Shown one piece after another: positions 1 to 62,738 of a DNA stretch of 64,000 nucleotides. Position 1 is the stretch's first letter; each line of letters opens with the position of its first letter. Position numbers and translations under genes: made by a program. The DNA lies in NCBI GenBank assembly GCA_963754235.1, contig CAVWFK010000036.1:1-64000 (forward strand), given 5' to 3'. Source of the DNA: an uncultured Alphaproteobacteria bacterium (lineage in GTDB: Bacteria; Pseudomonadota; Alphaproteobacteria; Acetobacterales; Acetobacteraceae). The notes under the pieces were generated by a model. It was not told where the DNA came from. It made no database searches and saw only the letters and a list, made by a program, of their open reading frames with translations.

Positions 1-869
1 GAAAATGCGATCCCCCCTGGCGTGATCGTCGCCTTCGCGCGGCGGGCGGAGTGGCACTGGATGTTCACCGCCGCCGGGTTCATCGTGATGTGCGTCGCCG
101 CCACCTCGACATGCACCTCGAACGCGGTGCCGCGCCCGCCTAAACCCTGCGGCCCGATGCCGAGCTCGTTGACCGCGCGCGACAGCTCCGCCTCCATCTT
201 TGCTCCCTCGGCGTCGGTGCAGCGCGATCCGACCGGGCGCGTCGCTGCGATCTTGGCCAGGTGCATGCACAAATCCGACGTGCCGCCCACGCCGACGCCC
301 ACGATGGTCGGCGGGCAGACGCGGCCGCCCGCCTCGATCACGCGGTCGATCACGAAACGCTTCACCGCGGCCACTCCATCGGCGGGGATCAGCATCTGGA
401 GAAAGGAACCGTTCTCCGATCCCGACCCCTTCGGGATCATTTCAATTTCCACCGTCTCGGCACGCTCGTCGAAATCGATGTGAATCACGGGGATGTTTGC
501 ACCGCACGAGGTATGCTCGTTGGCGCGCGTGATCGGATGCACGACCGAGGATCGCAACGGGTGCTCTCGCGTCGCCCGCGCGCAGCCCTGCCGGATCGCC
601 TGCTTCAGGGCCGGGCCGTCGAATTGCACGTCGCGGCCGATCAGCAAATTGTAGATCGGAATCCCGGTGTCCTGGCAGAGCAGGTTCTTGGTGCGCTCGG
701 CGACCGTGACGTTCTGCACGATCGTGTCCAGCACCGCCTGGCCGGTGGCGTCGGTTTCCTCGCGCCGCAGCCGCGCCAGCCCGTCCTTCACGTCGTCGGG
801 CAGCAGCTTGAGCGCGCGGATATAGAGGGTCTTGCAGACCTCCTCGATTTCGGCCGGATCAAGCTGCAT
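1..869 (-). CDS. Fe-S hydro-lyase alpha subunit (class I fumarate hydratase / L(+)-tartrate dehydratase alpha-like), 3' end outside window
   Basis: Minus-strand ATG near 869 gives 'MQLDPAEIEEVCKTLYIRALKLLPDDVKDG..'. The conserved '..LLCQDTG..' region is present and the C-terminal '..AVNIQCHSARRAKATITPGG' runs off the window start. High GC3. Absent from the ORF track because there is no in-window stop. Confidence 0.7.
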   Translation of the reverse strand, partial: MQLDPAEIEEVCKTLYIRALKLLPDDVKDGLARLRREETDATGQAVLDTIVQNVTVAERTKNLLCQDTGIPIYNLLIGRDVQFDGPALKQAIRQGCARATREHPLRSSVVHPITRANEHTSCGANIPVIHIDFDERAETVEIEMIPKGSGSENGSFLQMLIPADGVAAVKRFVIDRVIEAGGRVCPPTIVGVGVGGTSDLCMHLAKIAATRPVGSRCTDAEGAKMEAELSRAVNELGIGPQGLGGRGTAFEVHVEVAATHITMNPAAVNIQCHSARRAKATITPGGIAF

Positions 870-937
870 CGGCGCACCCTCCTGCTAGAGAACCAGTCAA
901 GGCCGGATATAGTGACCACCACGCCGCCATCCGACCC

Positions 938-1068
938 ACCGTCATGGTCGGCGAAGGCCGACCATCCACGTCTTTGGTGCGGCCGCGAAGTCGTGGATGC
1001 TCGGCCGGAGCCTGTCCTCGAGCGGGCCTTCGGCCCGACCCGGGGGCCGAGCATGACGGGGTTGGTTC
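938..1068. repeat. MITE/REP-like triple-hairpin element, copy A (long form)
   Basis: 'CCGTCATGGTCGGCGAAGGCCGACCATCCACGTCTTTGGTGCGGCCGCGAAGTCGTGGATGCTCGGCC...GGCCGAGCATGACGGGG'. It consists of nested palindromes and is one of six copies in the window. Confidence 0.6.
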
Positions 1069-1082
1069 GACCCCGTTGATTG

Positions 1083-1442
1083 TCACCCCACACCCGCGCT
1101 CAGCAAAAACAACAGCCCGCAAGCGAGGGCCGCGCCAAAGCACGCCGCCACGCTTGCCGCGGTCCGCTCCTGCCAGCCGGCGAACTCGATCGCGAGAACG
1201 CGCAGGCCGCAGCAGAGATGCACCGCGAGCGAGACCACAAGCCCGAACTCCAGCGCCTTGCCGAGCGGGTTCGCGGTCAGCGCCAGGAAACGGTCGAGCG
1301 CCGGCGCACCGGCGATCGCGGTGCCGAGCGCCGCGAAGTGCAGCGGCAGGAAGATGCTGAGCGCGATACCGGAGACGCGATGCACGACCGACGCAACCAG
1401 TCCCGGCCGCCGGCGCAGGCGAATGGCGACCGTGCCGTTCAT
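1083..1442 (-). CDS. SQR/QFR-type hydrophobic membrane anchor subunit (about 119 aa)
   Basis: Internal start 'MNGTVAIRLRRRPGLVASVVHRVSGIALSIFLPLHF...' within ORF 1083..1817, found by codon counting. Three predicted TM helices. ATGA start/stop overlap with the upstream gene. Confidence 0.55.
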   Translation of the reverse strand: MNGTVAIRLRRRPGLVASVVHRVSGIALSIFLPLHFAALGTAIAGAPALDRFLALTANPLGKALEFGLVVSLAVHLCCGLRVLAIEFAGWQERTAASVAACFGAALACGLLFLLSAGVG

Positions 1443-1768
1443 ATCGCATAGAGCCCATACGCCGCCCGCAATCCAAGCACGGCGATGACGCACGCAACCG
1501 CGACGAGCGCCGCATCGACGCCGCGCCCCGACCAGCCCGCCCACTCGCGCAGCACCGTGCGCAGGCCGATCGGTGCATGAACCGAGGCCGCGAGCACAAA
1601 CAGCGCATAGAAGGCGAAGAAAAGAAAATTGCCGCGCGTGCGGCCGAGGATTGCGCCGGCGGTCAGGCCGTGCTGTGCGGCATAGAGGATGGTCGCCAGA
1701 TGCACGGCAACCGCGACCGCGAGCACGGCCGCGGTTGCGCGCTGGGCAAGGAACAGCGCCGGGTTCAT
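1439..1768 (-). CDS. SQR/QFR-type membrane anchor subunit (about 109 aa)
   Basis: 'MNPALFLAQRATAAVLAVAVAVHLATILYAAQHG...', hydrophobic. Its ATG overlaps the stop of the Fe-S subunit gene (ATGA). Confidence 0.55.
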   Translation of the reverse strand: MNPALFLAQRATAAVLAVAVAVHLATILYAAQHGLTAGAILGRTRGNFLFFAFYALFVLAASVHAPIGLRTVLREWAGWSGRGVDAALVAVACVIAVLGLRAAYGLYAI

Positions 1769-2472
1769 CGCCGCCACGCGGCCCGCACCATCGCACGCTT
1801 GAGGCCGGCGATCGCATAGGTCGGCGCCAGGTGCTTCGGGCAATGCTCGGTGCAGCTCATGTGCGTGTGGCAGCACTGGCAGCCGCCATCGGCCGAGATC
1901 GCTGCAAGCCGCGCCGCGTCACCCCGATCGCGCACATCGTTCACCAGGCTCCAGGCACGGTTGAGCGCCGCCGGGCCGAGATAATCGGCATCCCACGCCA
2001 CCACCTCGCAGGCAGCGTAGCAGACGCCGCAGCCGATGCACTCGATCGCCGCGTCGGCGGCCCGGCGCGCGGCGCTGTCGGGGCAAACGACGGCGAAGTC
2101 GCGCGCCGGCTCCGCCCCCGGCTCGAACGCCCCGCCCGCGCGTTGCCACCTGTCGAAGAACGGCGACATGTCGACGACAAGATCCTTCACGATCGGCAGA
2201 TTGCGCAGCGGCGCCAGCGTGATCGCTCCGTCGTCGAGGCTTGCCACGCGCGTGCGGCAGGTCCAGCGCGGCTCTCCGTTCACCATCATGGCGCACGACC
2301 CGCACATGCCGACGCGACAGGCAAAGCGATAGGCCAGCGAGGCGTCCTGCGTGCGCTGGATCGCGGTCACGACGTCGAGCACGGTCTGGCTCTCCTGCCG
2401 CGCGACCGCGAAGGACTGGAAGGCGCCGTCCTCGCCGCCGCGCCAGACGCGCACGTCGAGCATCGCACTCAT
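1765..2472 (-). CDS. succinate dehydrogenase/fumarate reductase iron-sulfur subunit (SdhB/FrdB-like)
   Basis: 'MSAMLDVRVW..' with a 2Fe-2S motif 'FACRVGMCGSCAMMVNGEPRWTC', a 4Fe-4S motif 'ECIGCGVCYAAC' and a 3Fe-4S motif 'GGCQCCHTHMSCTEHCP'. About 236 aa. The start overlaps the permease stop by 4 nt. Confidence 0.85.
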   Translation of the reverse strand: MSAMLDVRVWRGGEDGAFQSFAVARQESQTVLDVVTAIQRTQDASLAYRFACRVGMCGSCAMMVNGEPRWTCRTRVASLDDGAITLAPLRNLPIVKDLVVDMSPFFDRWQRAGGAFEPGAEPARDFAVVCPDSAARRAADAAIECIGCGVCYAACEVVAWDADYLGPAALNRAWSLVNDVRDRGDAARLAAISADGGCQCCHTHMSCTEHCPKHLAPTYAIAGLKRAMVRAAWRR

Positions 2473-3344
2473 CGCTGCATCCCCCAGCGCCGCACGGTGC
2501 GCACCTCGATCGCGCGGAAGATCACGCTCTCGACCAGCAGCCCGATCACGATCACCGTCAGCAGCCCGGCGAACACGCGCGCGGTCAGCAATTCCTCGCG
2601 CGCCTCGTAGATGTACCAGCCAAGCCCGCCCGAGCGCGCCGAGACGCCGAACACCAACTCCGCCGCGATCAGCGTGCGCCACGCGAACGCCCAGCCGATC
2701 TTCAAGCCCGCCAGGATCGAAGGAAACGCCGCCGGGATCAGGATATGGACGACGTAGCGCACTCCGGAGAGGCCGTAATTGCGCCCGCTCATCCGCAGCA
2801 CCTCGGGGACCGAGCGGAAGCCGGAATTGGTGTTGAGCGCGATCGCCCACAGCGTGCCGTGGATCAGCACGAACACCATCGAGGGGATGCCGAGGCCGAA
2901 CCAGATCAAAGCGAGCGGCAGCAGTGCGATCGCCGGCAGCGGATTGAACATCGCCGTCAGCGTCGCCAAAATGTCGCTGCCGAGCTGCGTCGAGACCGCG
3001 AGCGTCGTCAGCACCGCGGCGGTCGCGACCCCCGCCGCATAGCCGATCACCAGCACTTCGAGCGAGGTGGCGATGCGATTGAGCAGCTCGCCCGTGACCA
3101 GATCGCTCACCAGGACGCTCACGGTCTCGGTCAAAGTCGGGAACAGCAGCGGGTTTCCGAGCCACATCGCATAGAATTGCCAGAGCAGCGCGAGCGCCAG
3201 CAGGATAAGCCCGCGCCGCAGCGCCAGATTGTTCTGCAGCCGCTCGAATGTCGGCAACGGCCGCACGACCGCGCCGATGCCGCTCACGTCTCCCGGCACG
3301 CGCTCGAACTCCGGGCGCAGCGGTGCGATACCGTCCGCGTTCAC
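2469..3344 (-). CDS. ABC transporter permease (NitT/TauT/SsuC-like family)
   Basis: C-terminal 291 aa of ORF 2469..3986 with multiple TM segments ('..LIPAAFPSILAGLKIGWAFAWRTLIAAELV..'). The likely GTG start overlaps the ATPase stop (GTGA). Confidence 0.75.
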   Translation of the reverse strand: MNADGIAPLRPEFERVPGDVSGIGAVVRPLPTFERLQNNLALRRGLILLALALLWQFYAMWLGNPLLFPTLTETVSVLVSDLVTGELLNRIATSLEVLVIGYAAGVATAAVLTTLAVSTQLGSDILATLTAMFNPLPAIALLPLALIWFGLGIPSMVFVLIHGTLWAIALNTNSGFRSVPEVLRMSGRNYGLSGVRYVVHILIPAAFPSILAGLKIGWAFAWRTLIAAELVFGVSARSGGLGWYIYEAREELLTARVFAGLLTVIVIGLLVESVIFRAIEVRTVRRWGMQR

Positions 3345-4129
3345 GCCACGTCCTCCGCCAGCGGCAGATCGAACAGCAGGCCGTGGATGCGCCGCGCGAG
3401 CCGGCCGATTGTGGGATCGTCGGCGCCGCGATGGCGAAACCCGTCCGAGTTCAGCTCGGCGCGCACGCGCCCCGGATGCGGCGACAGCACCAGGATGCGC
3501 GAGCCGATCAGCACCGCCTCCTCGATCGAGTGGGTGACGAACATCACGGTGAAGCGGAGCTGGTCCCACAGACCCATCAGCTCTTCCTGCATGGTGCGGC
3601 GGGTGAGCGCGTCGAGCGCCGCGAAGGGTTCGTCCATCAGCAGGATGTCGGGTGCCATCGCCATCGCCCGCGCGATCGCGACCCGCATCTTCATCCCCCC
3701 CGAGAGCATGTGCGGATAGGCGTCCGCGAACTTGGCAAGCTGCACCTTCTCCAGGATTGCCATCGCGCGGTCGCTGGCGTCGCGGCCGCGGAAGCGCCCG
3801 CTCGCGCGCATCGGGAACAGCACGTTGCCGAGTACCGTCTTCCACGGCATCAGTTGCTCGAACTCCTGGAACACCATCATCCGGTCCGGGCCGGGGCGCA
3901 CGACCGGCCGGCCGCGCAGCGCGATGCTGCCCTCGGCGGGCGCCATGAAGCCGCCGATCGCCTTCAGCAGTGTCGATTTGCCGCACCCGGAGGGGCCGAG
4001 GATCACGAACCGATCACCCGCCTCGACGGTCAGATCGACGCGCCAGGTCGCGGTGACCAGATCGTTCGGGGTCTTGTATTGCAGCGTCAGGCCGCGAACT
4101 TCGAGCAGCGGACTAGCCTCGGGCTGCAT
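3341..4129 (-). CDS. ABC transporter ATP-binding protein (NitT/TauT family)
   Basis: Walker A 'GPSGCGKST', signature 'LSGGMKMRVAIARA', Walker B 'ILLMDEPFAALD'. Start chosen at the internal 'MQPEASPLLEVRGL'. Confidence 0.85.
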   Translation of the reverse strand: MQPEASPLLEVRGLTLQYKTPNDLVTATWRVDLTVEAGDRFVILGPSGCGKSTLLKAIGGFMAPAEGSIALRGRPVVRPGPDRMMVFQEFEQLMPWKTVLGNVLFPMRASGRFRGRDASDRAMAILEKVQLAKFADAYPHMLSGGMKMRVAIARAMAMAPDILLMDEPFAALDALTRRTMQEELMGLWDQLRFTVMFVTHSIEEAVLIGSRILVLSPHPGRVRAELNSDGFRHRGADDPTIGRLARRIHGLLFDLPLAEDVA

Positions 4130-4137
4130 CGCGCCGC

Positions 4138-5151
4138 TCAGTCGCCCTTCAGCTCGCTCGCGGTTGAAGAAAAAAACACGTCTCGCCATGATCCGGGCGC
4201 ATGCGGGATCAGGCCCTGCTTTGCCATGAACGCGGCGAAGACGCCGATCTTGTGCGGATCGAGCGTCCAATGGTTCTCGGAATCCTTGAGGATTTTCACT
4301 ACATCGGCCTCAGAGAGCGCGGATGCTTTCTGCGTCTTCAGGTAGATCTGCGCCGCCTCGTCGGGGTGCTCGCGAATGAACGCTTCCGCCTGCCGCAACG
4401 CGGCCATGAAGGCCGCCACGACCTTCGGGTTCTTCTCCACGAAGCGGTTCGTCGCCCAGATGCAGTTGAAGGTGTGCGGCCCGCCCAGCACGTCGTCGCT
4501 GCTGAGCACGCGATGCACGTTCGGATGCTGCAGCTCCTCGTACATGTACGGGGCCGAGGTGAAGTGCGCGGTGATCCCCGCCTTGCCGCTCAGCATCGCC
4601 GCCATTCCGTCCGGATGCGACATCGACACGGTGAGCCTGTCGAGCTTGTGCGCGTTCGCCTCTCCGAACGCCTTGGCCGCCGCCATTTGCAGGATGATCG
4701 CCTGGATCGACACGCGCGCCGCCGGCAGCGCGATGCGGTCCTTGTCGGTGAAGCCGGCGATCGTATGCACGTTCGGGTCGATGGTATTCAGGTAGAGCGG
4801 CATCGAATTGAGCGCGGAGAGGCCCTTGACGTCGAGATTGCCGTGCGTGCGCGCCCAGATCACCAGCATCGGCGCGACCCCGCCCGACGCGAAATCCAGA
4901 TTGCCGGAGATCAGCGCCTCGTTCATCGCGGCACCGCCGGTGAAGCGCAGCCAATGCGTGGTGATGGCGACACCGCGTTGCTTGCCTTGCGTTTCCAGCA
5001 GGTTCTGCGCGCGCATCACAGTCAGCGGCAGGTAGGAAAGCCCGTATTCCTGCGCGAGCCTTACATTGACCGCCCGCGCCGAGGGCACGCCCGCCGCCAG
5101 CGTCGCGAGTGCGATGCCGAGTGCGGACAAGACCTGGCCGAGACGTCCCAT
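4138..5151 (-). CDS. ABC transporter periplasmic substrate-binding protein (NMT1/SsuA/TauA-like)
   Basis: Signal peptide 'MGRLGQVLSALGIALATLAAGVPSARA', 337 aa, SsuA/NitT-type fold features. Confidence 0.8.
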   Translation of the reverse strand: MGRLGQVLSALGIALATLAAGVPSARAVNVRLAQEYGLSYLPLTVMRAQNLLETQGKQRGVAITTHWLRFTGGAAMNEALISGNLDFASGGVAPMLVIWARTHGNLDVKGLSALNSMPLYLNTIDPNVHTIAGFTDKDRIALPAARVSIQAIILQMAAAKAFGEANAHKLDRLTVSMSHPDGMAAMLSGKAGITAHFTSAPYMYEELQHPNVHRVLSSDDVLGGPHTFNCIWATNRFVEKNPKVVAAFMAALRQAEAFIREHPDEAAQIYLKTQKASALSEADVVKILKDSENHWTLDPHKIGVFAAFMAKQGLIPHAPGSWRDVFFSSTASELKGD

Positions 5152-5213
5152 GTGCCTCCCTCCGGCGCGTTCTTGATGAGCGGCCCGAAATTAGAGCGGC
5201 GCTGCGCGAGGGG

Positions 5214-5924
5214 TCAAACCGCCACCGCCATCGCCATCGCGATCGCCGCCGCGGCTGCGCCCGGATCGGCCGCACCCGTGATCGGCCTTCCGACCACCAC
5301 CAGGTCGGCCCCGCTCGCGACCGCCTGCGCAGGTGTCGCGACCCGCGCCTGATCGCCCGCCTCGCTGCCTATCGGTCGCACGCCCGGCACCACCAGCAGC
5401 GGCGCCGGGCCGAGTGCCGCGCGGAGTGCCGCCACCTCGTGCGCGCTGCACACCAGCCCGTCGGCGCCGGCCGCGATCGCGAGCCGGCCGAGCCGCAGCA
5501 CCTGCGCCGCCGGCTCGCCTTCTACTCCCGTCGCCGCGAGCGCCGCCGCATCGAGGCTGGTCAGCACCGTCACCGCCAGCAGAAGCGGCGGATCGGCGGC
5601 CGCCGCACCCGCCTCGTGGGCCGCGGCGATCATCGCGGCGCCACCCGCCGCGTGCACCGTCAGCATCGCCGGGCGCAGCGCCAGCACCGCACGCACTGCC
5701 CCCGCAACCGTATTCGGGATGTCGTGCAGCTTGAGGTCCAGGAACAGCGGCACGCCGCTTCGCCCGGCCACCTCCCGCACGCCCGCCGGCCCGTTCGCCG
5801 CGAAAAACTCAAGGCCGAGCTTCACGCCGGCGCAATGCGGCGCGACCGCTTCGGCCCAGGCGCGCGCCTGTCGTGGATCGGCGGTGTCGAGCGCCGCGAT
5901 CAGCCGCGAGCGGCGCTCAGGCAT
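5214..5924 (-). CDS. pyrF: orotidine 5'-phosphate decarboxylase
   Basis: '..[27 protein letters not shown]..', 236 aa. Confidence 0.9.
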
Positions 5925-5962
5925 CCGACCTCAGGCATCCGACCTCAGGCATCCGGCGGCGG
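5920..5962. repeat. 14-bp tandem repeat x3 ('GGTCGGATGCCTGA') spanning the lapA stop and the pyrF start codon
   Basis: 'ctcaggcatccgacctcaggcatccgacctcaggcatccgg' read directly from the sequence. Confidence 0.6.
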
Positions 5963-6256
5963 CAGCGGCGCGGGACGGGGCGAGAGCCGCGCCTGAAAGT
6001 CCTGCAATTCGGCCTCCAGAAGCCGCACCCGCCGCTCGGCCAGGTGCGCGCGCCGGCGCTGCACGAGGGCACTGCCCCAGACCACCAGCGCGCCCAGCAG
6101 CAGGCCGATCGCCAACCCCGCCAGCACCGCGAACGAGAGCGGCGCCTGCATCGCGAAATCGGTCGGCCAGAAGCCGAGCTGCACCGGCTGCGGGTTCGAC
6201 AGCGCGAACACGACCAGGATCAGCAGCACCGGAAACAGCACGATCATGCGCAACAC
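5945..6256 (-). CDS. LapA/DUF1049-family inner-membrane protein
   Basis: Two-TM small protein 'MLRMIVLFPVLLILVVFALS..'. Sits in the conserved position between ihfB and pyrF. Confidence 0.65.
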   Translation of the reverse strand: MLRMIVLFPVLLILVVFALSNPQPVQLGFWPTDFAMQAPLSFAVLAGLAIGLLLGALVVWGSALVQRRRAHLAERRVRLLEAELQDFQARLSPRPAPLPPPDA

Positions 6257-6271
6257 GATGGATAGCCCCGA

Positions 6272-6598
6272 TCAGGCGCTCGCGCGCTCCAGCCGTGCCG
6301 CGCCGCGCGGCTTGCCGCGATTGACCCGCTCGCGCAGTTCCTTGCCGGCCTTGAAGAACGGCACCATCTTCTCGTCAACCGGCACCGCCTCGCCGGTGCG
6401 CGGATTGCGCCCGGTGCGGGCGCCGCGACGCTTGACGGTGAAGGCGCCGAAGCCGCGCAACTCGACACGGTCGCCGCGCGAGAGGGCGGCGCCGATCTCG
6501 CTGAACACGGTGGCGACGATGGTCTCGACATCGGCCCCGCGCAGATGCGGGTTGGCGGCGGCGAGTTCCGCGATCAACTCGGACCTGGTCATCGTCAT
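6272..6598 (-). CDS. ihfB: integration host factor subunit beta
   Basis: '[44 protein letters not shown]..'. Confidence 0.85.
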
Positions 6599-7536
6599 TC
6601 TGCCCCCGGCCCCGAAGGCTGCCAAAGCGCCAGCGGCAAGTCAAGCATAAGTGATTGCAGCGCAACACTTTTGTCAAGGGCGCTGCCGAGCAGGGCGGGC
6701 AGGAGACTGGCCCGGACCGAGGCGAGCCAGCCTCGCTTCGGCGCCACCTTGCGCATCGGCAGCGCGGCCGGGACCGCCTTCGTGCGCGCGAGCCACGCCC
6801 GCGCCGACGGCTCGCCCCCGATCGCATCGACCAGCCCCAGCGCCAGTGCCTGCCGGCCGGTATAGGCGCGCCCGTCCGCGAGCCGCCGCACCCGGGCCGG
6901 ATCCATGTGCCGGCCGGTCGCGACCATGACCACGAACTGGTCGTAGAGATCGTCCACGATGCCTTGCAGCACCTTCTGCCCCGCCGGGCTGGTCGGGTGC
7001 AGGGGGCTCGGCTGGTCCTTGAGCGGCCCGGAGACCAGCGTGTCGGTGGTGATGCCGAGCTTGCCCAGCAGGCCCGAGACCTCGCCGGTTGCCATCAGCA
7101 CGCCGATCGAGCCGGTGAGCGTGCCTTCGCGGGCGAAGATGCGCGCCGCCGGCACCGCGACCATGTAGCCGGCCGAGGCGGCGAGCCCGCCCATCACCGC
7201 GACCACCGGCTTGACCTTCGCCACGCTCGCGATCGCGTCGTGCAACGCCTGCCCGCCGGCGACACTGCCGCCAGGACTGTCGATCGCCACGATCAGCGCC
7301 ACCGCATGGCGGTCGGTCGCGAGGGCGCCCACGCGGGCGTCGAGTGCGTCGTCCTCGGTGATGAGACCGTTGACCGCGAGCCGCGCGACGTAGCGCCCCT
7401 CCCCGGCGGCGCCGCCCAGCCGCACGAACGCGACCAGCAGCGCCGCGGCCACCGCCAGCACGGCGACGATCTGCCATGCGGCGAGACGGCGCTTGAGGCG
7501 CTGCCGCTCGCTCAGCAGATCGGCCGTGAACGGCAT
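6595..7536 (-). CDS. sppA: signal peptide peptidase SppA (36K type)
   Basis: 313 aa, N-terminal TM segment, '[11 protein letters not shown]' serine-protease motif. Confidence 0.85.
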
Positions 7537-7585
7537 TGTCGCGGCCCCCGCCCTCCTTTTTTTGTCGCGGCCCTCGCCGTCGGGC

Positions 7586-9349
<1,764 letters not shown>

Positions 9350-24120: not shown

Positions 24121-24154
24121 GGAACGTGGCCATTATTGGCATTGCAGCAATACC

Positions 24155-24283
24155 GTCATGGTCGGCGAAGGCCGACCATCCACGTCTTTCGTGACGCGGC
24201 AAAGTCGTGGATGCTCGGCCGGAGCCTGTCCTCGGGCGGGCCTTCGGCCCGACCCGGGGGCCGAGCATGACGGGCTGGTTAGA
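24155..24283. repeat. MITE/REP-like element copy B (long form) in the phnF/phnG divergent region
   Basis: Near-identical to copy A. Confidence 0.6.
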
Positions 24284-28117: not shown

Positions 28118-28278
28118 GCCGGATCGTCGTCATGCTCGGCGAAGGCCGCACACTCGTCATGCTCGGCGGAGGCCGAGCATCCACGACTTTGCGGGCCCAC
28201 GAAAGGCGTGGATGGTCGGCCGGAGCCTGTCCTCGGGCGGGCCTTCGGCCCGACCCGGGGGCCGACCATGACGGTGAG
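28118..28278. repeat. MITE/REP-like element copy C (expanded form) between phnK and phnL
   Basis: 'GTCATGCTCGGCGAAGGCCG..' with an internal duplication. Sits in the only sizeable intergenic gap of the phnG-M operon. Confidence 0.6.
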
Positions 28279-35644: not shown

Positions 35645-37420
35645 CTACCGCTTCGGCTTCTCCGCCGCGATCCGCCCTGGCAGCGGATGCCCGGGCGGCG
35701 GCATCCGCCTCGGCTTGGGCGCAGGCCGCGCCGGCGCCTTGCCGGCACGCAACTGCGCGATCGTGATCCGCGACGTGATCTGCTCGGGATCCGTCGCCAG
35801 CTCGATCACCGCCGGCCGGCCGCTCGCGACCGCGCGGGCGAAGGCAGGCGCAAACTCCGCCGTCTCGGTCACGCTCTCGCCGTGGCCCCCGAACGCCTCG
35901 ATGAGCCGGCCAAAATCGGGGTTGGTGAGCGAGGTGCCGGAGACGCGGCCGGGATAGTCGCGCTCCTGGTGCATCCGGATCGTGCCGTACATCTGGTTGT
36001 TGAACACCAGCACGATCGGCGCCACGCCGTGATGAAAGGCGGTTGCGATCTCCTGCCCGGTCATCAGGAAGCCGCCGTCGCCGACGAAGCAGACCACCTG
36101 CCGGTGCGGATACGCGATCTTCGCTCCTACCGCCGCCGGCACGCCGTAGCCCATCGCCCCGTTGCACGGCCCGATGTAGCGCTGATGCTCGGAGAAGTGC
36201 ATGAACCGCGTCGCCCAGGTGGCGAAATTGCCCGCATCCGTCGTAAAGATCGCATCCGGTGCCGCCATCTCCTCGAGCGTGCGCAAGCATCGCGCCACGT
36301 TCAGCTTGCCCTCGTACTCCGGCACCGCATGTTCGGCCTCGCGCAGCGCCCGCAGATCGGCGGTCCACTCCGCCCACACTGGCGGCGCGTCGGGTGCCCA
36401 GTCGCGCACCGCCGCCGCAAACGCATCGAGATCGGTCGGGATGCCGAGCGCCACGCGGAACACGCGCCCGATCTCGGCACCATCCGGATAGACATGAATG
36501 ATCGGGGTTTCGCCCGCGAGATCGAACAGCGTGTAGCCCTGCGTCACCGCCTCCGGCAGCCGCGAGCCGATCGCGAGCACCAGATCGGCCTCGCGCACGC
36601 GCTCGACCAGCGCGGGGTCGCAACCGACACCGAGATCGCCCACGAAATTCTCGGCGGTGCCGTCATAGAGCGCCTGGCGCCGGAAGCCGACCGCGACCGG
36701 CAACTGCCAGGCGCGCAGGAACGCGGCGATACCGGCGCGCGCCGCCGCACTCCACACCGATCCGCCGAGCATCGCGAGCGGCCGTTGCGCGCGGCCCAGC
36801 ATCGCGCGCATCCGCGCCAGCGCCGCCGGATCGGGATGCGGGCGGGCGACGTCGCAGGGACGCAAATCCGGCACCTCGACCACGTCGCGCTGCATTTCCT
36901 CCGACAACGCAATCACCACCGGGCCGGGCCGTCCGGTGGTCGCGACGTCGGCCGCGTGGGCCACCATCTCGGGGATGCGGCGCGCGTCATCGATCTGTGT
37001 GACCCACTTCGCGAGCGGGCCGAACATCCGGCGGTAGTCGATCTCCTGGAAGCTGTCGCGGTCGGTCTCCTCGAACGGGATCTGGCCCACGAACAGCAGC
37101 AGCGGCGTTGAATCCTGGGCCGCGATGTGCACGCCGATCGCGCCGTGGCAGGCGCCGGGTCCGCGCGTGACCATCGCCGCGGCGGGCCGGCCCGAGAGCT
37201 TGCCGAACGCTTCTGCCATGTTCACGGCACCCGCCTCGAAACGGCACGTCACCAGCTTCAGCCGGTCGCGCACCGCGTAGAGGCCGTCGAGCACGTCGAG
37301 ATAGCTCTCGCCCGGCACCGCGAACACGTGGTCGATCCCTTGCGCCACCAGCGCATCGGCCAAAGCGCGTCCGCCGGTGCGCGGCTGCGTGCGCAGCTTG
37401 CGGGCCTGCGCGAGTTCCAT
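35645..37420 (-). CDS. thiamine-pyrophosphate enzyme (acetolactate synthase large-subunit-like)
   Basis: 591 aa, 'GDGGF' TPP motif. Confidence 0.8.
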   Translation of the reverse strand: MELAQARKLRTQPRTGGRALADALVAQGIDHVFAVPGESYLDVLDGLYAVRDRLKLVTCRFEAGAVNMAEAFGKLSGRPAAAMVTRGPGACHGAIGVHIAAQDSTPLLLFVGQIPFEETDRDSFQEIDYRRMFGPLAKWVTQIDDARRIPEMVAHAADVATTGRPGPVVIALSEEMQRDVVEVPDLRPCDVARPHPDPAALARMRAMLGRAQRPLAMLGGSVWSAAARAGIAAFLRAWQLPVAVGFRRQALYDGTAENFVGDLGVGCDPALVERVREADLVLAIGSRLPEAVTQGYTLFDLAGETPIIHVYPDGAEIGRVFRVALGIPTDLDAFAAAVRDWAPDAPPVWAEWTADLRALREAEHAVPEYEGKLNVARCLRTLEEMAAPDAIFTTDAGNFATWATRFMHFSEHQRYIGPCNGAMGYGVPAAVGAKIAYPHRQVVCFVGDGGFLMTGQEIATAFHHGVAPIVLVFNNQMYGTIRMHQERDYPGRVSGTSLTNPDFGRLIEAFGGHGESVTETAEFAPAFARAVASGRPAVIELATDPEQITSRITIAQLRAGKAPARPAPKPRRMPPPGHPLPGRIAAEKPKR

Positions 37421-39339: not shown

Positions 39340-39428
39340 TCGTCATGCTCGGAAGGCCGAGCATCCACGACTTTGCGGCCGCGCGAAAGACGTGGATGGT
39401 CGGCCTTCGCCGACCATGACGGGTTGGT
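39340..39428. repeat. MITE/REP-like element copy D (short form, inverted orientation)
   Basis: 'GTCATGCTCGGAAGGCCGAGCATCCACGACTTTGCGGCCGCGCGAAAGACGTGGATGGTCGGCCTTCGCCGACCATGACGG'. Confidence 0.6.
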
Positions 39429-51078: not shown

Positions 51079-52866
51079 TCAATCCTTGCCGCCTGGCAAC
51101 ACGCCGGCCAGGACTTGCCTCGCACTTTCCTTCAGCACGCTGCCCAGTTCCGGCTCGCTGCCCATCATGGTCATGAAGTTCTTCGCATCCTTCAACGTGA
51201 TATGCGGCGGCAAGGGGGGCACGTTCGGGTCCGTGTAGCACTCGAGAATAACCGGGCGGTCGGCCGCCAGCGCCTCGTCCCACGCAGCACCCAGCTTCTC
51301 CGGATCATCGACGAAGATGCCCTTCAGACCCAACAGTCCGGCATATTTGTGGTACGGGAAGTCGGGGATGGTCTGCGTCGCCGGCGTCTTGCCGTCGCCG
51401 AGCTGAATGCGTTCCTCCCACGTCACCTGGTTGAGGTCGCGGTTGTTCAACACCATCACGATCAAGCGCGGGTCGGACCACTCCTTCCAGTATTTGCTAA
51501 TGGTGATCATCACGTTCAGTCCGTTCATCTGCATCGCACCGTCGCCGATGAAGGCGATGACGACACGATCCGGGAACGCCATCTTCGCCGCCATCGCGTA
51601 GGGCGTGGCCGCACCCAGAGACGCCAATCCCCCCGAGAGCGACCCCATCATGCCGCGACGAATCCGGATGTCGCGCGCGTACCAATTGGCGACCGAGCCG
51701 GAATCGCCGGTCATGATGCAGTTCTCCGGCAGCCGCTTCGACAGCTCCCAGAACACGCGTTGCGGGTTGATCGGATCGGCCGGCTCCATCGCCCGCTCTT
51801 CCAGCGTCTTCCACCACTTGGCGACGCCGGTCTCGATCCCCCGCCGCCAATGACCCGCCGGCTTCTTATCCAACATCGGCAGCAGGGCGCGCAGGGTTAC
51901 GGCGCTGTCGCCCACCATGTTCACCTCCATGGGATAGCGCAGGCTCAGCCTGGTGCCGTCGATGTCGATCTGCACGCCGCGCGCCTCGCCCGGCTTGGGC
52001 AGGAACTCGCTGTAGGGGAAGCAGGAGCCGATCATGAAGAAGGTGTCGCAGCCCTTCATCAGATCCCAGCTCGGCTTGGTCCCGAGCAGGCCGATCGAAC
52101 CCGTGACCCAGGGCAGCTCGTCGGGAAGGGCGGCCTTGCCCAGCAGCGCCTTGGCGGCCCCCGCCTGCAGCCGGTCGGCAACCTCGATCACCTCGTCGGT
52201 GGCCCCCAAAGCGCCCGCGCCGACCAGGATGCCGACCTTCTTGCCGGCGTTGAGCACATCGGCCGCCCGCCGCAGGAGCGCCTCGTCCGGCAGTTGCGCC
52301 GGACCGGCGTAGCCGACGCCGGTATGGGTGGTGCCGTGGACCACCGGCGGGTCTTCGTAAGTCATCTCCTGGAGGTCATTCGGGATGATGACGCAGGTGA
52401 CGGTGCGGCGGTTGGATGCGGTCCGCACCGCCCGATCAATCAACTGGCGCACCTGCCCCGGCAAAATGGCCATCGCGACGAAGTCCGCGGCCACGTCCTT
52501 GAACAGCGACTGCAGATCGACTTCCTGCTGATAGCCGGCACCGATGGACGTGCGCGCCTGCTGGCCCACGATCGCCACCACGGGCACGTGATCCATCTTC
52601 GCGTCATAGAGGCCGTTCAGCAGGTGGATCGCACCCGGTCCTGAGGTCGCGTAGCAGAGCCCGACCTCGCCGGTAAACTTGGCGTGGGCCGACGCCATGA
52701 AGGCCGCCATCTCCTCATGCCGGACCTGGATGTATTTCAGGCTGTCCTGAACCTTTTGCAGCGCCACGTCGAGGCCGCCGACACCGTCCCCAGGGTAGCC
52801 ATAGACGCGCTTGAGCCCCCATTCCTGCAACCGGTGCCACACGTATTCGCTGACATTCATGCTCAT
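51079..52866 (-). CDS. TPP-dependent pyruvate oxidase / pyruvate dehydrogenase (quinone)-like enzyme
   Basis: 595 aa. 'IGDGAMQMNG' TPP motif. Locally lower GC (about 56-60%). Confidence 0.85.
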   Translation of the reverse strand: MSMNVSEYVWHRLQEWGLKRVYGYPGDGVGGLDVALQKVQDSLKYIQVRHEEMAAFMASAHAKFTGEVGLCYATSGPGAIHLLNGLYDAKMDHVPVVAIVGQQARTSIGAGYQQEVDLQSLFKDVAADFVAMAILPGQVRQLIDRAVRTASNRRTVTCVIIPNDLQEMTYEDPPVVHGTTHTGVGYAGPAQLPDEALLRRAADVLNAGKKVGILVGAGALGATDEVIEVADRLQAGAAKALLGKAALPDELPWVTGSIGLLGTKPSWDLMKGCDTFFMIGSCFPYSEFLPKPGEARGVQIDIDGTRLSLRYPMEVNMVGDSAVTLRALLPMLDKKPAGHWRRGIETGVAKWWKTLEERAMEPADPINPQRVFWELSKRLPENCIMTGDSGSVANWYARDIRIRRGMMGSLSGGLASLGAATPYAMAAKMAFPDRVVIAFIGDGAMQMNGLNVMITISKYWKEWSDPRLIVMVLNNRDLNQVTWEERIQLGDGKTPATQTIPDFPYHKYAGLLGLKGIFVDDPEKLGAAWDEALAADRPVILECYTDPNVPPLPPHITLKDAKNFMTMMGSEPELGSVLKESARQVLAGVLPGGKD

Positions 52867-53027
52867 GGGAGGCGCTCCAACCCTGCAACCGAACGGAGCA
52901 CGCCAACCGATGGACGCGCGTTCGCGATGCCGCAGCGGTTACGCGCCACCCTCCCCCGCGTTCCCGCGTTTGCGGTCAAATCGTGGCAGCGGGGCAGGGC
53001 GATCGCATTTGGACACGATGTTACCGT

Positions 53028-53113
53028 CATGGTCGGTGGAGGCCGACCATCCACGTCTTTCGTGCGGCCGCATCGTCGTGGATGCTCGGCATTCGCCGAG
53101 CATGACGGGGTTG
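53028..53113. repeat. MITE/REP-like element copy E (short form)
   Basis: 'CCGTCATGGTCGGTGGAGGCCGACCATCCACGTCTTTCGTGCGGCCGCATCGTCGTGGATGCTCGGCATTCGCCGAGCATGACGGGG'. Confidence 0.6.
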
Positions 53114-62616: not shown

Positions 62617-62705
62617 CCCGTCATGGTCGGCGGAGGCCGACCATCCACGTCTTTCTGCCGCGCGGGATAGTGAAGTCGTGGATGGTCGGCCTTCGCCGAC
62701 CATGA
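62617..62705. repeat. MITE/REP-like element copy F, abutting the hisA start codon
   Basis: 'CCGTCATGGTCGGCGGAGGCCGACCATCCACG..GACCATGACGGGG'. Its terminal 'GACGGGGAG' supplies the SD 3-4 nt before the hisA ATG. Confidence 0.6.
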
Positions 62706-62738
62706 CGGGGGGACACGTCAATCCTTTCGCAACCGGCC

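Follow-up and report, generated by a model that had tools for sequence, protein, structure and literature searches.

A complex II-like gene cluster with an iron–sulfur hydro-lyase in an uncultured member of the Acetobacteraceae: part of a candidate operon for organosulfonate degradation

The window analyzed here is a stretch of 64,000 nucleotides (contig CAVWFK010000036.1 of assembly GCA_963754235.1, positions 1 to 64,000) from an uncultured alphaproteobacterium of the Acetobacteraceae, and its subject is the set of seven co-directional genes on the minus strand of positions 1–5400. As read from the sequence and from a Pfam and NCBIfam scan of the products, these encode the three components of an ATP-binding cassette (ABC) importer of the NitT/TauT type, an SdhB-like iron–sulfur (Fe-S) protein, two small membrane anchors, and the alpha subunit of an Fe-S hydro-lyase. 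We consider it somewhat more probable than the contrary that they are the first seven genes of a conserved operon that degrades a succinate-like organosulfonate through a complex II-like enzyme and a hydratase. Gene neighborhoods in related genomes suggest that the substrate class is probably that of the sulfonates; 3-sulfopropanoate as the specific substrate is proposed tentatively, at a little less than even odds.

The conserved core and its flavoprotein

Relatives of the cluster were collected as three contexts of close homologs and 80 loci, one per species, found with the SdhB-like protein; they are numbered with the prefix L (e.g., L001, L062), and their synteny was tabulated by tblastn. 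Counts of gene presence refer throughout to those 46 of the related loci that span 18 kb or more. The best relative's match to the SdhB-like protein of the window has 75% identity. Across Alpha- and Betaproteobacteria, 85 loci from different species share a constant core (SdhB, anchor, anchor, hydro-lyase alpha, hydro-lyase beta [PF05683], flavoprotein), which is complete in L001–L005. The flavoprotein, of ~575 aa with FAD_binding_2 and Succ_DH_flav_C domains, is encoded downstream of the hydro-lyase genes in 43 of the 46 long loci. Its gene usually adjoins or overlaps that of the beta subunit, with overlaps of 4 nt in L003–L005 and L092 and of 1 nt in L002; some Betaproteobacteria carry a transporter cassette between the two. 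Proteobacterial-type clusters, with SdhB-like proteins 62–65% identical to that of the window, also occur in metagenome-assembled genomes (MAGs) labeled Streptomycetaceae (L046, L069) and Clostridia (L078), where they are probably mis-binned contigs.

A first-pass annotation of this DNA described a cluster without a flavoprotein, in which the transporter took the flavoprotein's position. A tblastn search of the 64-kb window, with a related flavoprotein as the SdhA probe, indeed returned no SdhA-family gene, and likewise no hydro-lyase beta, SuyAB or TauE gene. The hydro-lyase alpha gene, however, shows 289 codons and is cut by the window start some 2–3 codons short of its stop; because it ends just beyond base 1, every gene downstream of it falls outside the window. 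The apparent absence is thus very probably a window-edge artifact, and a flavoprotein is very probably present in this genome, judging from its relatives, in which an SdhA-family flavoprotein follows the hydro-lyase beta gene. The genes and layout of the earlier description are largely confirmed, but what it took for a missing subunit is very probably an edge effect. The same annotation had named, as the combination that would speak against its reading, a canonical sdhA or frdA immediately downstream beside a transporter that is merely an independently transcribed neighbor. A flavoprotein does stand downstream in the relatives, although a non-canonical one, and the transporter is not an independently transcribed neighbor. 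A truly flavoprotein-less module, in which SdhB and the anchors would wire the hydro-lyase or the transporter to the quinone pool, agrees with a window that holds no SdhA-family gene; but the window stops exactly where the relatives encode the beta subunit and the flavoprotein, and this explanation is extremely improbable given how regularly the long loci include the latter.

The membrane-associated subunits resemble those of succinate dehydrogenase. The SdhB-like protein scores 189 bits against TIGR00384 dhsB (cutoff 88), retains the complete ligands of the 2Fe-2S, 4Fe-4S and 3Fe-4S clusters (CRVGMCGSC...C, CIGCGVCYAAC and CHTHMSCTEHCP), and keeps the His and Trp of the quinone site. The SdhC-like anchor passes TIGR02970 (58.4 bits against a cutoff of 52.3), has the HRVSG motif, and places its heme His in alignment with E. 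coli SdhC His84; the SdhD-like anchor falls under the cutoff of TIGR02968 (27.6 bits), with a heme His aligned to E. coli SdhD His71 and Glu-Trp in place of Asp82-Tyr83. The anchors are therefore of the Sdh_cyt type (PF01127), with two subunits (type C) and both heme-b His ligands, in the order B, D-like, C-like. The FrdB-C-D order proposed earlier does not hold, since these are not FrdC and FrdD.

For the flavoprotein, 51 sequences from related loci were aligned with E. coli SdhA, FrdA and NadB (residues in E. coli SdhA numbering). Two substitutions are invariant in this set: the His that links FAD covalently through an 8-alpha-N3-histidyl bond (SdhA His45/FrdA His44) is Cys (GKCGCTRMVQGG) in 51 of 51 sequences, and the catalytic Thr254 is Glu (LEEGLRGAGG) in all 51. 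The remaining five of the six residues in the succinate/fumarate catalytic set (H242, E255, R286, H354 and R399) are kept, and two nearby positions carry smaller residues (E260A and S404G). The position of the NadB-specific Glu121 is Phe, as in SdhA and FrdA. The flavoprotein falls under every curated NCBIfam cutoff for SdhA, FrdA, NadB and TfrA, the best match being TfrA (485 bits against a cutoff of 718), and a PDB search returned no closer solved homolog than mycobacterial or E. coli SdhA and FrdA. From its sequence, the predicted complex resembles complex II without being a canonical succinate dehydrogenase. The flavoprotein retains both anion-binding pairs, and the Thr-to-Glu and His-to-Cys changes fit several substrate readings.

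The hydro-lyase alpha subunit of the window matches PF05681 with 295 bits and the 'fumarate hydratase' model NF004885 with 304.8 bits (cutoff 276), and carries the three cluster Cys residues (CQDTG, CPP, QCHSARR) together with a KGSGSEN motif, as in the related alpha subunits. In the relatives, the beta subunit (PF05683) keeps TT..R and GKGG, with its Lys, scores 121 bits against TIGR00723 (cutoff 145), and contains a family-specific insertion (HTAPNV...GYAP). Since these catalytic motifs are kept, the enzyme would be expected still to act on an enoate/hydroxy acid pair with a distal anionic group.

Sulfonate genes in related loci and a proposed pathway

The suggestion of a sulfonate comes from what surrounds the core in related loci. 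A heteromeric UxaA-type lyase resembling SuyA/SuyB is encoded in 28–29 of the 46 long loci, TauE in 24, a GntR regulator in 23, a ComC-like dehydrogenase of the Ldh_2 family in 21, a TctC receptor in 21, ABC genes (ATPase, solute-binding protein [SBP], permease) in 16–18, a nitroreductase-family protein (PF00881, ~286 aa) in 15 (e.g., L019, L021, L025, L031, L045), and a 2-hydroxyacid dehydrogenase and a thiamine pyrophosphate (TPP) enzyme in 9 each; YeiH/SuyZ-like exporters are likewise found in the clusters. Within single co-directional operons, sulfonate genes are interspersed among core genes, in an order that varies by lineage. In Elioraea tepidiphila DSM 17972 (L062), for example, the operon reads SuyA, SuyB, SBP, ATPase, permease, SdhB, anchors, TauE, hydro-lyase alpha, beta, flavoprotein, 2-hydroxyacid dehydrogenase, Ldh_2, and in Methylobacterium radiotolerans JCM 2831 (L092) the entire gene set lies on plasmid pMRAD01. 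The SuyB-like protein of the relatives is 78.5% identical to the product of a Paracoccus versutus gene in a locus composed of GntR, suyA, suyB and a sulfate exporter, a layout that we take to be that of the characterized P. pantotrophus enzyme. SuyAB is the sole heteromeric member of the UxaA superfamily (PMC6336799). The first-pass annotation had posited an uncharacterized uptake and quinone-linked pathway for a C4-dicarboxylate-like or sulfonate-like substrate. Gene context supports such a pathway, and the SuyAB, TauE, YeiH/SuyZ-like and ComC/SlcC-like genes of the relatives back the sulfonate-like option. Because the window and the closest Acetobacteraceae loci are without sulfolactate genes, the sulfonate link is drawn by homology with other lineages.

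The importer has the SBP, BPD_transp_1 permease and ATPase of a NitT/TauT system, and scores far under the cutoffs of the Tau, Ssu and Sao equivalogs. The SBP reaches 81.6 bits against NCBIfam SsuA_fam (cutoff 163.5), and its best PDB match is the taurine-binding protein TauA, a weak one (E=8e-4); the ATPase has TauB as its best NCBIfam match (205.9 bits, under cutoff); and the permease resembles SaoP, SsuC, NtrB and TauC, all under cutoff. The SBP is 50–60% identical to the SBP that precedes SdhB in related operons, and the coupling of ABC importer to SdhB and anchors, as first described for the window, recurs in other species, for example L008–L013, L019, L021, L022, L031, E. tepidiphila and M. 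radiotolerans. Uptake cassettes are exchangeable between clusters (ABC, TctC, TAXI-TRAP) and vary in position within the operon: in L030, L037 and L060 the ABC cassette lies between anchors and hydro-lyase, where Betaproteobacteria have a TctC receptor instead. Such swapping and movement of cassettes is expected for a substrate-specific catabolic unit. A sulfatase gene (PF00884) stands between the anchors and the TctC/hydro-lyase genes in L043, L057, L068 and other Betaproteobacterial loci.

Other genes recur near the core. A TPP enzyme of ~540 aa is encoded beside it in L002, L003–L005, L092, L094, L043, L057, L068 and L082–L084; it is nearest to models of acetolactate synthase, 2-hydroxyacyl-CoA lyase and oxalyl-CoA decarboxylase, and under the cutoffs of all of them. 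In L008 its place is taken by an upstream two-subunit gene pair resembling sulfopyruvate decarboxylase. Two TPP-enzyme homologs in the window (35798–37378 and 51217–52851, minus strand) are 23–28% identical to the cluster enzyme and are probably unrelated genes of the acetolactate synthase type. The nitroreductase-family gene of L094 (Sulfitobacter) lies beside the TPP enzyme and a glutathione S-transferase gene, and a two-subunit dehydratase pair of the aconitase-X type (DUF521/DUF126) is found in or near the cluster in L012, L024 and L030. The recurring nitroreductase-family genes raised 3-nitropropionate, a succinate analog, as a candidate substrate, which was rejected as the leading reading on the SuyAB, TauE and ComC context.

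A second arrangement of the cluster (type 2) has the order SdhB, anchors, flavoprotein, followed by a divergent hydro-lyase (~35% and 28% identity, with CADTG in place of CQDTG), and keeps the Cys and Glu signature of the flavoprotein. It occurs in L093 (P. versutus pTAV3), L094 (Sulfitobacter THAF37), L044, L048, L053, L054 and L080; in P. versutus pTAV3 and Sulfitobacter it lies in C3-sulfonate islands, with YeiH, TauE, ComC/SlcC-like and TTT genes as neighbors. In L048 its neighbors are a NitT/TauT ABC system and, by visual inspection, genes for TauD-like dioxygenases. Further homologs occur in Cupriavidus, Rhodococcus jostii RHA1 and haloarchaea.

We propose that the ABC importer would take up a succinate-like organosulfonate, most likely 3-sulfopropanoate. 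A membrane complex composed of the flavoprotein, the SdhB-like protein and a one-heme SdhC/SdhD-like anchor would oxidize it to 3-sulfoacrylate and pass the electrons to quinone, and the two-subunit Fe-S hydratase would add water to yield 3-sulfolactate. SuyAB, encoded adjacent to the core in many relatives and outside the window in this genome if present, would then cleave 3-sulfolactate to pyruvate and sulfite. Hydration with L-malate-like geometry would give, by the priority rules, (2R)-3-sulfolactate, which is the SuyAB substrate; the racemizing pair of the ComC/SlcC type may act ahead of SuyAB on the other enantiomer. This route is the simplest because the pairing of dehydrogenase and hydratase mimics the succinate–fumarate–malate sequence, and does so amid sulfolactate genes and SsuA/TauA-like or TctC receptors. 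Sulfoacrylic acid is an intermediate of bacterial coenzyme M biosynthesis. It is possible, although we hold this more loosely than the choice of 3-sulfopropanoate itself, that the complex II homolog with Cys (S-cysteinyl or non-covalent FAD) and Glu is the missing 3-sulfopropanoate:quinone dehydrogenase, acting with a dedicated Fe-S sulfoacrylate hydratase.

The metabolism of 2,3-dihydroxypropane-1-sulfonate (DHPS)/sulfoquinovose and that of homotaurine yield 3-sulfopropanoate, a natural product recognized recently, and reviews up to January 2026 call its degradation unknown (PMC11489063; PMC12890257). A route from 3-sulfopropanoate through sulfoacrylate to sulfolactate was proposed from physiology in a thesis, with no enzymes reported (PMC11489063; PMC12890257). 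P. pantotrophus is reported to degrade homotaurine, a precursor of 3-sulfopropanoate (PMC12421959), and a paper on coenzyme M biosynthesis in bacteria mentions sulfoacrylic acid (PMC9457059). The searched literature yielded neither enzymes for the aerobic breakdown of 3-sulfopropanoate nor, in searches combining sulfopropanoate, sulfoacrylate, sulfosuccinate or sulfolactate with succinate dehydrogenase, fumarase or fumarate reductase, a characterization of the present module.

Several observations weigh against a 3-sulfopropanoate pathway. Loss of the FAD-linking His is unfavorable for C–C desaturation of the succinate type, and E. coli FrdA His44 variants lose succinate oxidation; an S-cysteinyl link from the conserved Cys to FAD could compensate. 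Replacement of the catalytic Thr by Glu offers no obvious means of binding a sulfonate, and the unchanged dicarboxylate His/Arg pairs, with the carboxylate site of the beta subunit, fit a dicarboxylate such as sulfosuccinate at least as well. The cluster-associated TPP enzyme and nitroreductase-family gene have no place in the proposed steps. Within this genome, tblastn found no SuyAB, TauE or ComC-like gene in the 64-kb window; the beta subunit and flavoprotein, which would lie beyond base 1, we infer from related sequences; and the closest Acetobacteraceae relatives (L041, L047) have the bare six-gene core beside housekeeping genes (rpsD, cysK-like). The substrate of the family as a whole is proposed from gene context and sequence.

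Other roles for the same genes would account for parts of this evidence. Instead of desaturating a C–C bond, the flavoprotein might oxidize L-cysteate, in the way NadB treats aspartate, or sulfolactate, in the way complex II treats malate; the product would be sulfopyruvate and the electron acceptor quinone. A ComC-like enzyme and SuyAB would finish the pathway, and the hydro-lyase would have a separate role. The covalent-FAD His is lost as in NadB, which suits low-potential substrates, and the Glu gained in the active site could serve to hold an amino or hydroxyl group. Ldh_2 (ComC-like) genes often follow the flavoprotein gene without a second dehydrogenase, genes for sulfopyruvate decarboxylase-like and TPP enzymes are nearby, and the Sulfitobacter island includes an aspartate aminotransferase-like gene. 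The hydro-lyase, however, accompanies the flavoprotein without exception in either gene order, a coupling that is unexplained without an enoate intermediate; Phe at the Glu121 position is a departure from NadB; and the alpha subunit scores above the curated cutoff for two-subunit fumarate hydratase. On balance this role seems unlikely. A sulfonated dicarboxylate such as sulfosuccinate would instead be oxidized to sulfofumarate and hydrated, and sulfite would then be released, by spontaneous breakdown of a 2-hydroxy-2-sulfo adduct or by a SuyAB-like lyase, to leave oxaloacetate. The retention of H242, R286, H354 and R399 in the flavoprotein and of the TT..R/Lys site in the beta subunit is consistent with such a substrate, as are the smaller residues of E260A and S404G, which could accommodate an extra substituent, the presence of TctC (tricarboxylate-type) receptors and a DctA gene in the clusters, and TauE or YeiH exporters within the core operon even where SuyAB is not nearby. 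But Thr-to-Glu would put a negative charge beside a tri-anion, the ComC/SlcC-like pair and SuyAB point to sulfolactate and sulfopyruvate intermediates, and we know of no natural source of sulfosuccinate for a cluster that is ancient and spread widely among soil and marine lineages; we regard this substrate as rather improbable.

The sulfonate genes could also be bystanders that share islands with an operon for an ordinary C4 or C5 dicarboxylate (a second succinate dehydrogenase and fumarase, or enzymes for tartrate, methylsuccinate or mesaconate). The flavoprotein does retain its dicarboxylate-binding residues, the alpha subunit scores above the equivalog cutoff for fumarate hydratase, and the window and closest Acetobacteraceae loci have no sulfonate-specific genes other than the NitT/TauT-type importer. 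Such co-localization is nonetheless distinctly improbable in view of the Thr254-to-Glu and His45-to-Cys changes in every flavoprotein aligned and its scores under all curated SdhA/FrdA cutoffs, of SsuA/TauA-like binding proteins that belong to the operon, and of SuyAB, TauE and Ldh_2 genes interleaved in co-directional operons, in shuffled order, in many independent lineages. Finally, the complex might work in the reductive direction, as a quinol-dependent reductase of sulfoacrylate or a fumarate analog that serves as an electron sink, with the hydro-lyase supplying the enoate from a hydroxy acid. Lack of the covalent-FAD His is a typical trait of enzymes operating as reductases, and the His44 variants of E. 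coli FrdA keep fumarate reduction. Yet most hosts are aerobes with ubiquinone (Methylobacterium, Acetobacteraceae, Burkholderiales), the heme-b anchor belongs to the Sdh type, and a high-affinity importer together with the pyruvate-yielding SuyAB indicates assimilation of the carbon skeleton, so that a reductive role is very improbable.

The operon in the window and the repeat in its spacer

The genes at the window start (Table 1) were identified correctly in the first reading, as judged by Pfam and NCBIfam, apart from the reassignment of the anchors to the SdhD/SdhC family. Overlaps of 4 nt had been described between all six of the first genes. Four of the five junctions do have such start/stop overlaps, one GTGA (permease start with ATPase stop) and three ATGA (at the starts of the SdhB-like gene and both anchors), but the junction from SBP to ATPase is an 8-nt gap, given the plausible ATG at 4129.

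Table 1. Genes and repeat element at the start of the window
Feature	Position	Strand	Domains and remarks
SBP, NitT/TauT-type ABC importer, 337 aa	4138..5151	-	Pfam NMT1/NMT1_2; signal peptide ...ARA/VN
ABC ATPase, 262 aa	3341..4129	-	PF00005
ABC permease, 291 aa	2469..3344	-	PF00528; GTG start
SdhB-like iron-sulfur subunit, 235 aa	1765..2472	-	Fer2_3 + Fer4_8/17
SdhD-like membrane anchor, 109 aa	1439..1768	-	PF01127
SdhC-like cytochrome b556 membrane anchor, 119 aa	1083..1442	-	PF01127
Fe-S hydro-lyase alpha (class-I fumarase/TtdA family)	1..869	-	PF05681 (Fumerase); ATG 869
Dispersed palindromic repeat, ~120 nt	938..1060	.	in anchor/hydro-lyase spacer 870-1082

Upstream of the operon, a housekeeping run (rpsA, sppA, an HU/IHF-family gene, lapA-like, pyrF) occupies 5214–9349 on the minus strand, and the gap between it and the SBP start, on the same strand, is 62 nt. 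The G+C content of the operon is ~0.63–0.70, against 0.70–0.77 in these housekeeping neighbors, which may point to acquisition. A promoter and terminator scan of 1–6400 returned a single promoter-like site, on the plus strand, and no more terminator-like sites than chance would give.

The spacer between the second anchor and the hydro-lyase gene is 213 nt long. The repeat within it has terminal inverted repeats, CCGTCATGGTCGGC / GCCGAGCATGACGG (14 nt, 93%), and internal hairpins. Full copies lie elsewhere in the window at 24152–24274 (95%) and 28155–28274 (88%), and half copies at 39355–39422, 53023–53090 and 62618–62708. The 64 kb thus contain three complete copies and three or more partial ones; their borders are sharp, and their terminal inverted repeats are CCGTCATG...CATGACGG. 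Because the homologous spacer in the closest relatives (L001, L041, L047) is just ~25–40 nt, the repeat is an insertion; in many Hyphomicrobiales a TauE gene stands in its place. The element had been called a miniature inverted-repeat transposable element (MITE). It is short, non-coding and dispersed, with terminal inverted repeats, but no target-site duplication is evident, as no shared or duplicated flank was found at the three full copies. It is therefore best described as a dispersed palindromic repeat, for which a MITE is unproven and a palindromic repeat resembling repetitive extragenic palindromes or bacterial interspersed mosaic elements (REP/BIME) is equally possible.

Comparison with known systems and implications

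Each part of the cluster has its place in a known family: the respiratory-type subunits in the complex II superfamily (with an anchor of type C), the hydratase among the class I Fe-S hydro-lyases, and the transporter among the NitT/TauT importers. The complex is like E. coli SdhCDAB (type C complex II) in its three-cluster SdhB, its two Sdh_cyt anchors with heme-b His and, in the relatives, its SdhA-family flavoprotein. It is unlike it in gene order (B, D, C, hydro-lyase alpha and beta, A), with the flavoprotein split off by the hydratase genes, in the replacement of the FAD His by Cys and the catalytic Thr by Glu in a flavoprotein that falls under the curated SdhA/FrdA models, and in the coupling of the operon to an importer and, in relatives, to sulfolactate genes. 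Two SdhA-family members that lack the classical membrane complex, thiol:fumarate reductase TfrA and L-aspartate oxidase NadB, are also comparable. The flavoprotein has its best NCBIfam score with TfrA and resembles NadB in the loss of the FAD-linking His, but it lies under the TfrA cutoff of 718, has Phe at NadB Glu121, and is encoded with SdhB/C/D-type partners. The hydro-lyase has the PF05681 and PF05683 subunits, three Cys, CQDTG, and beta TT..R and Lys of class I Fe-S fumarate hydratase and TtdAB; unlike them, it has a beta subunit under curated cutoffs with an insertion, is always encoded next to the divergent flavoprotein and, in relatives, belongs to a context of sulfonate catabolism rather than the tricarboxylic acid (TCA) cycle or tartrate fermentation.

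The importer is comparable to TauABC and SsuABC in its three components and its best matches (TauB; SsuC/TauC/SaoP; SsuA_fam/TauA), but is far under the equivalog cutoffs and translationally coupled to respiratory-type subunits. The closest published counterpart of the wider neighborhood is the SlcC/ComC–SuyAB system with SuyZ/TauE in Chromohalobacter salexigens and Paracoccus pantotrophus (PMC12421959): relatives of the cluster have the UxaA-type lyase, with Ldh_2, 2-hydroxyacid dehydrogenases, TauE/YeiH and TctC in the same operons or islands. That pathway, however, has no complex II-like and hydratase core, and the window has none of its genes. Three features set the combination apart from known systems: its split gene order, the changed active site of the flavoprotein and, in relatives, a systematic link to sulfolactate catabolism. 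None of them was found described in the searched literature.

If the proposed pathway is correct, the cluster would encode the first membrane-bound enzyme of the complex II type with a non-dicarboxylate organosulfonate as its substrate, and would represent a sulfonate version of the TCA-cycle segment from succinate through fumarate to malate, feeding SuyAB. It would also explain the mineralization of 3-sulfopropanoate and homotaurine by aerobic soil and marine bacteria. The cluster is borne by several named strains, including M. radiotolerans JCM 2831 (pMRAD01), E. tepidiphila DSM 17972, P. versutus (pTAV3) and Cupriavidus necator N-1. Current labels for its genes, such as succinate dehydrogenase, fumarate hydratase or FAD-binding protein, can mislead metabolic reconstructions. 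A module that turns 3-sulfopropanoate into sulfolactate would fill in a missing part of the organosulfur cycle, and would extend both the substrate range and the flavin chemistry of the complex II family.

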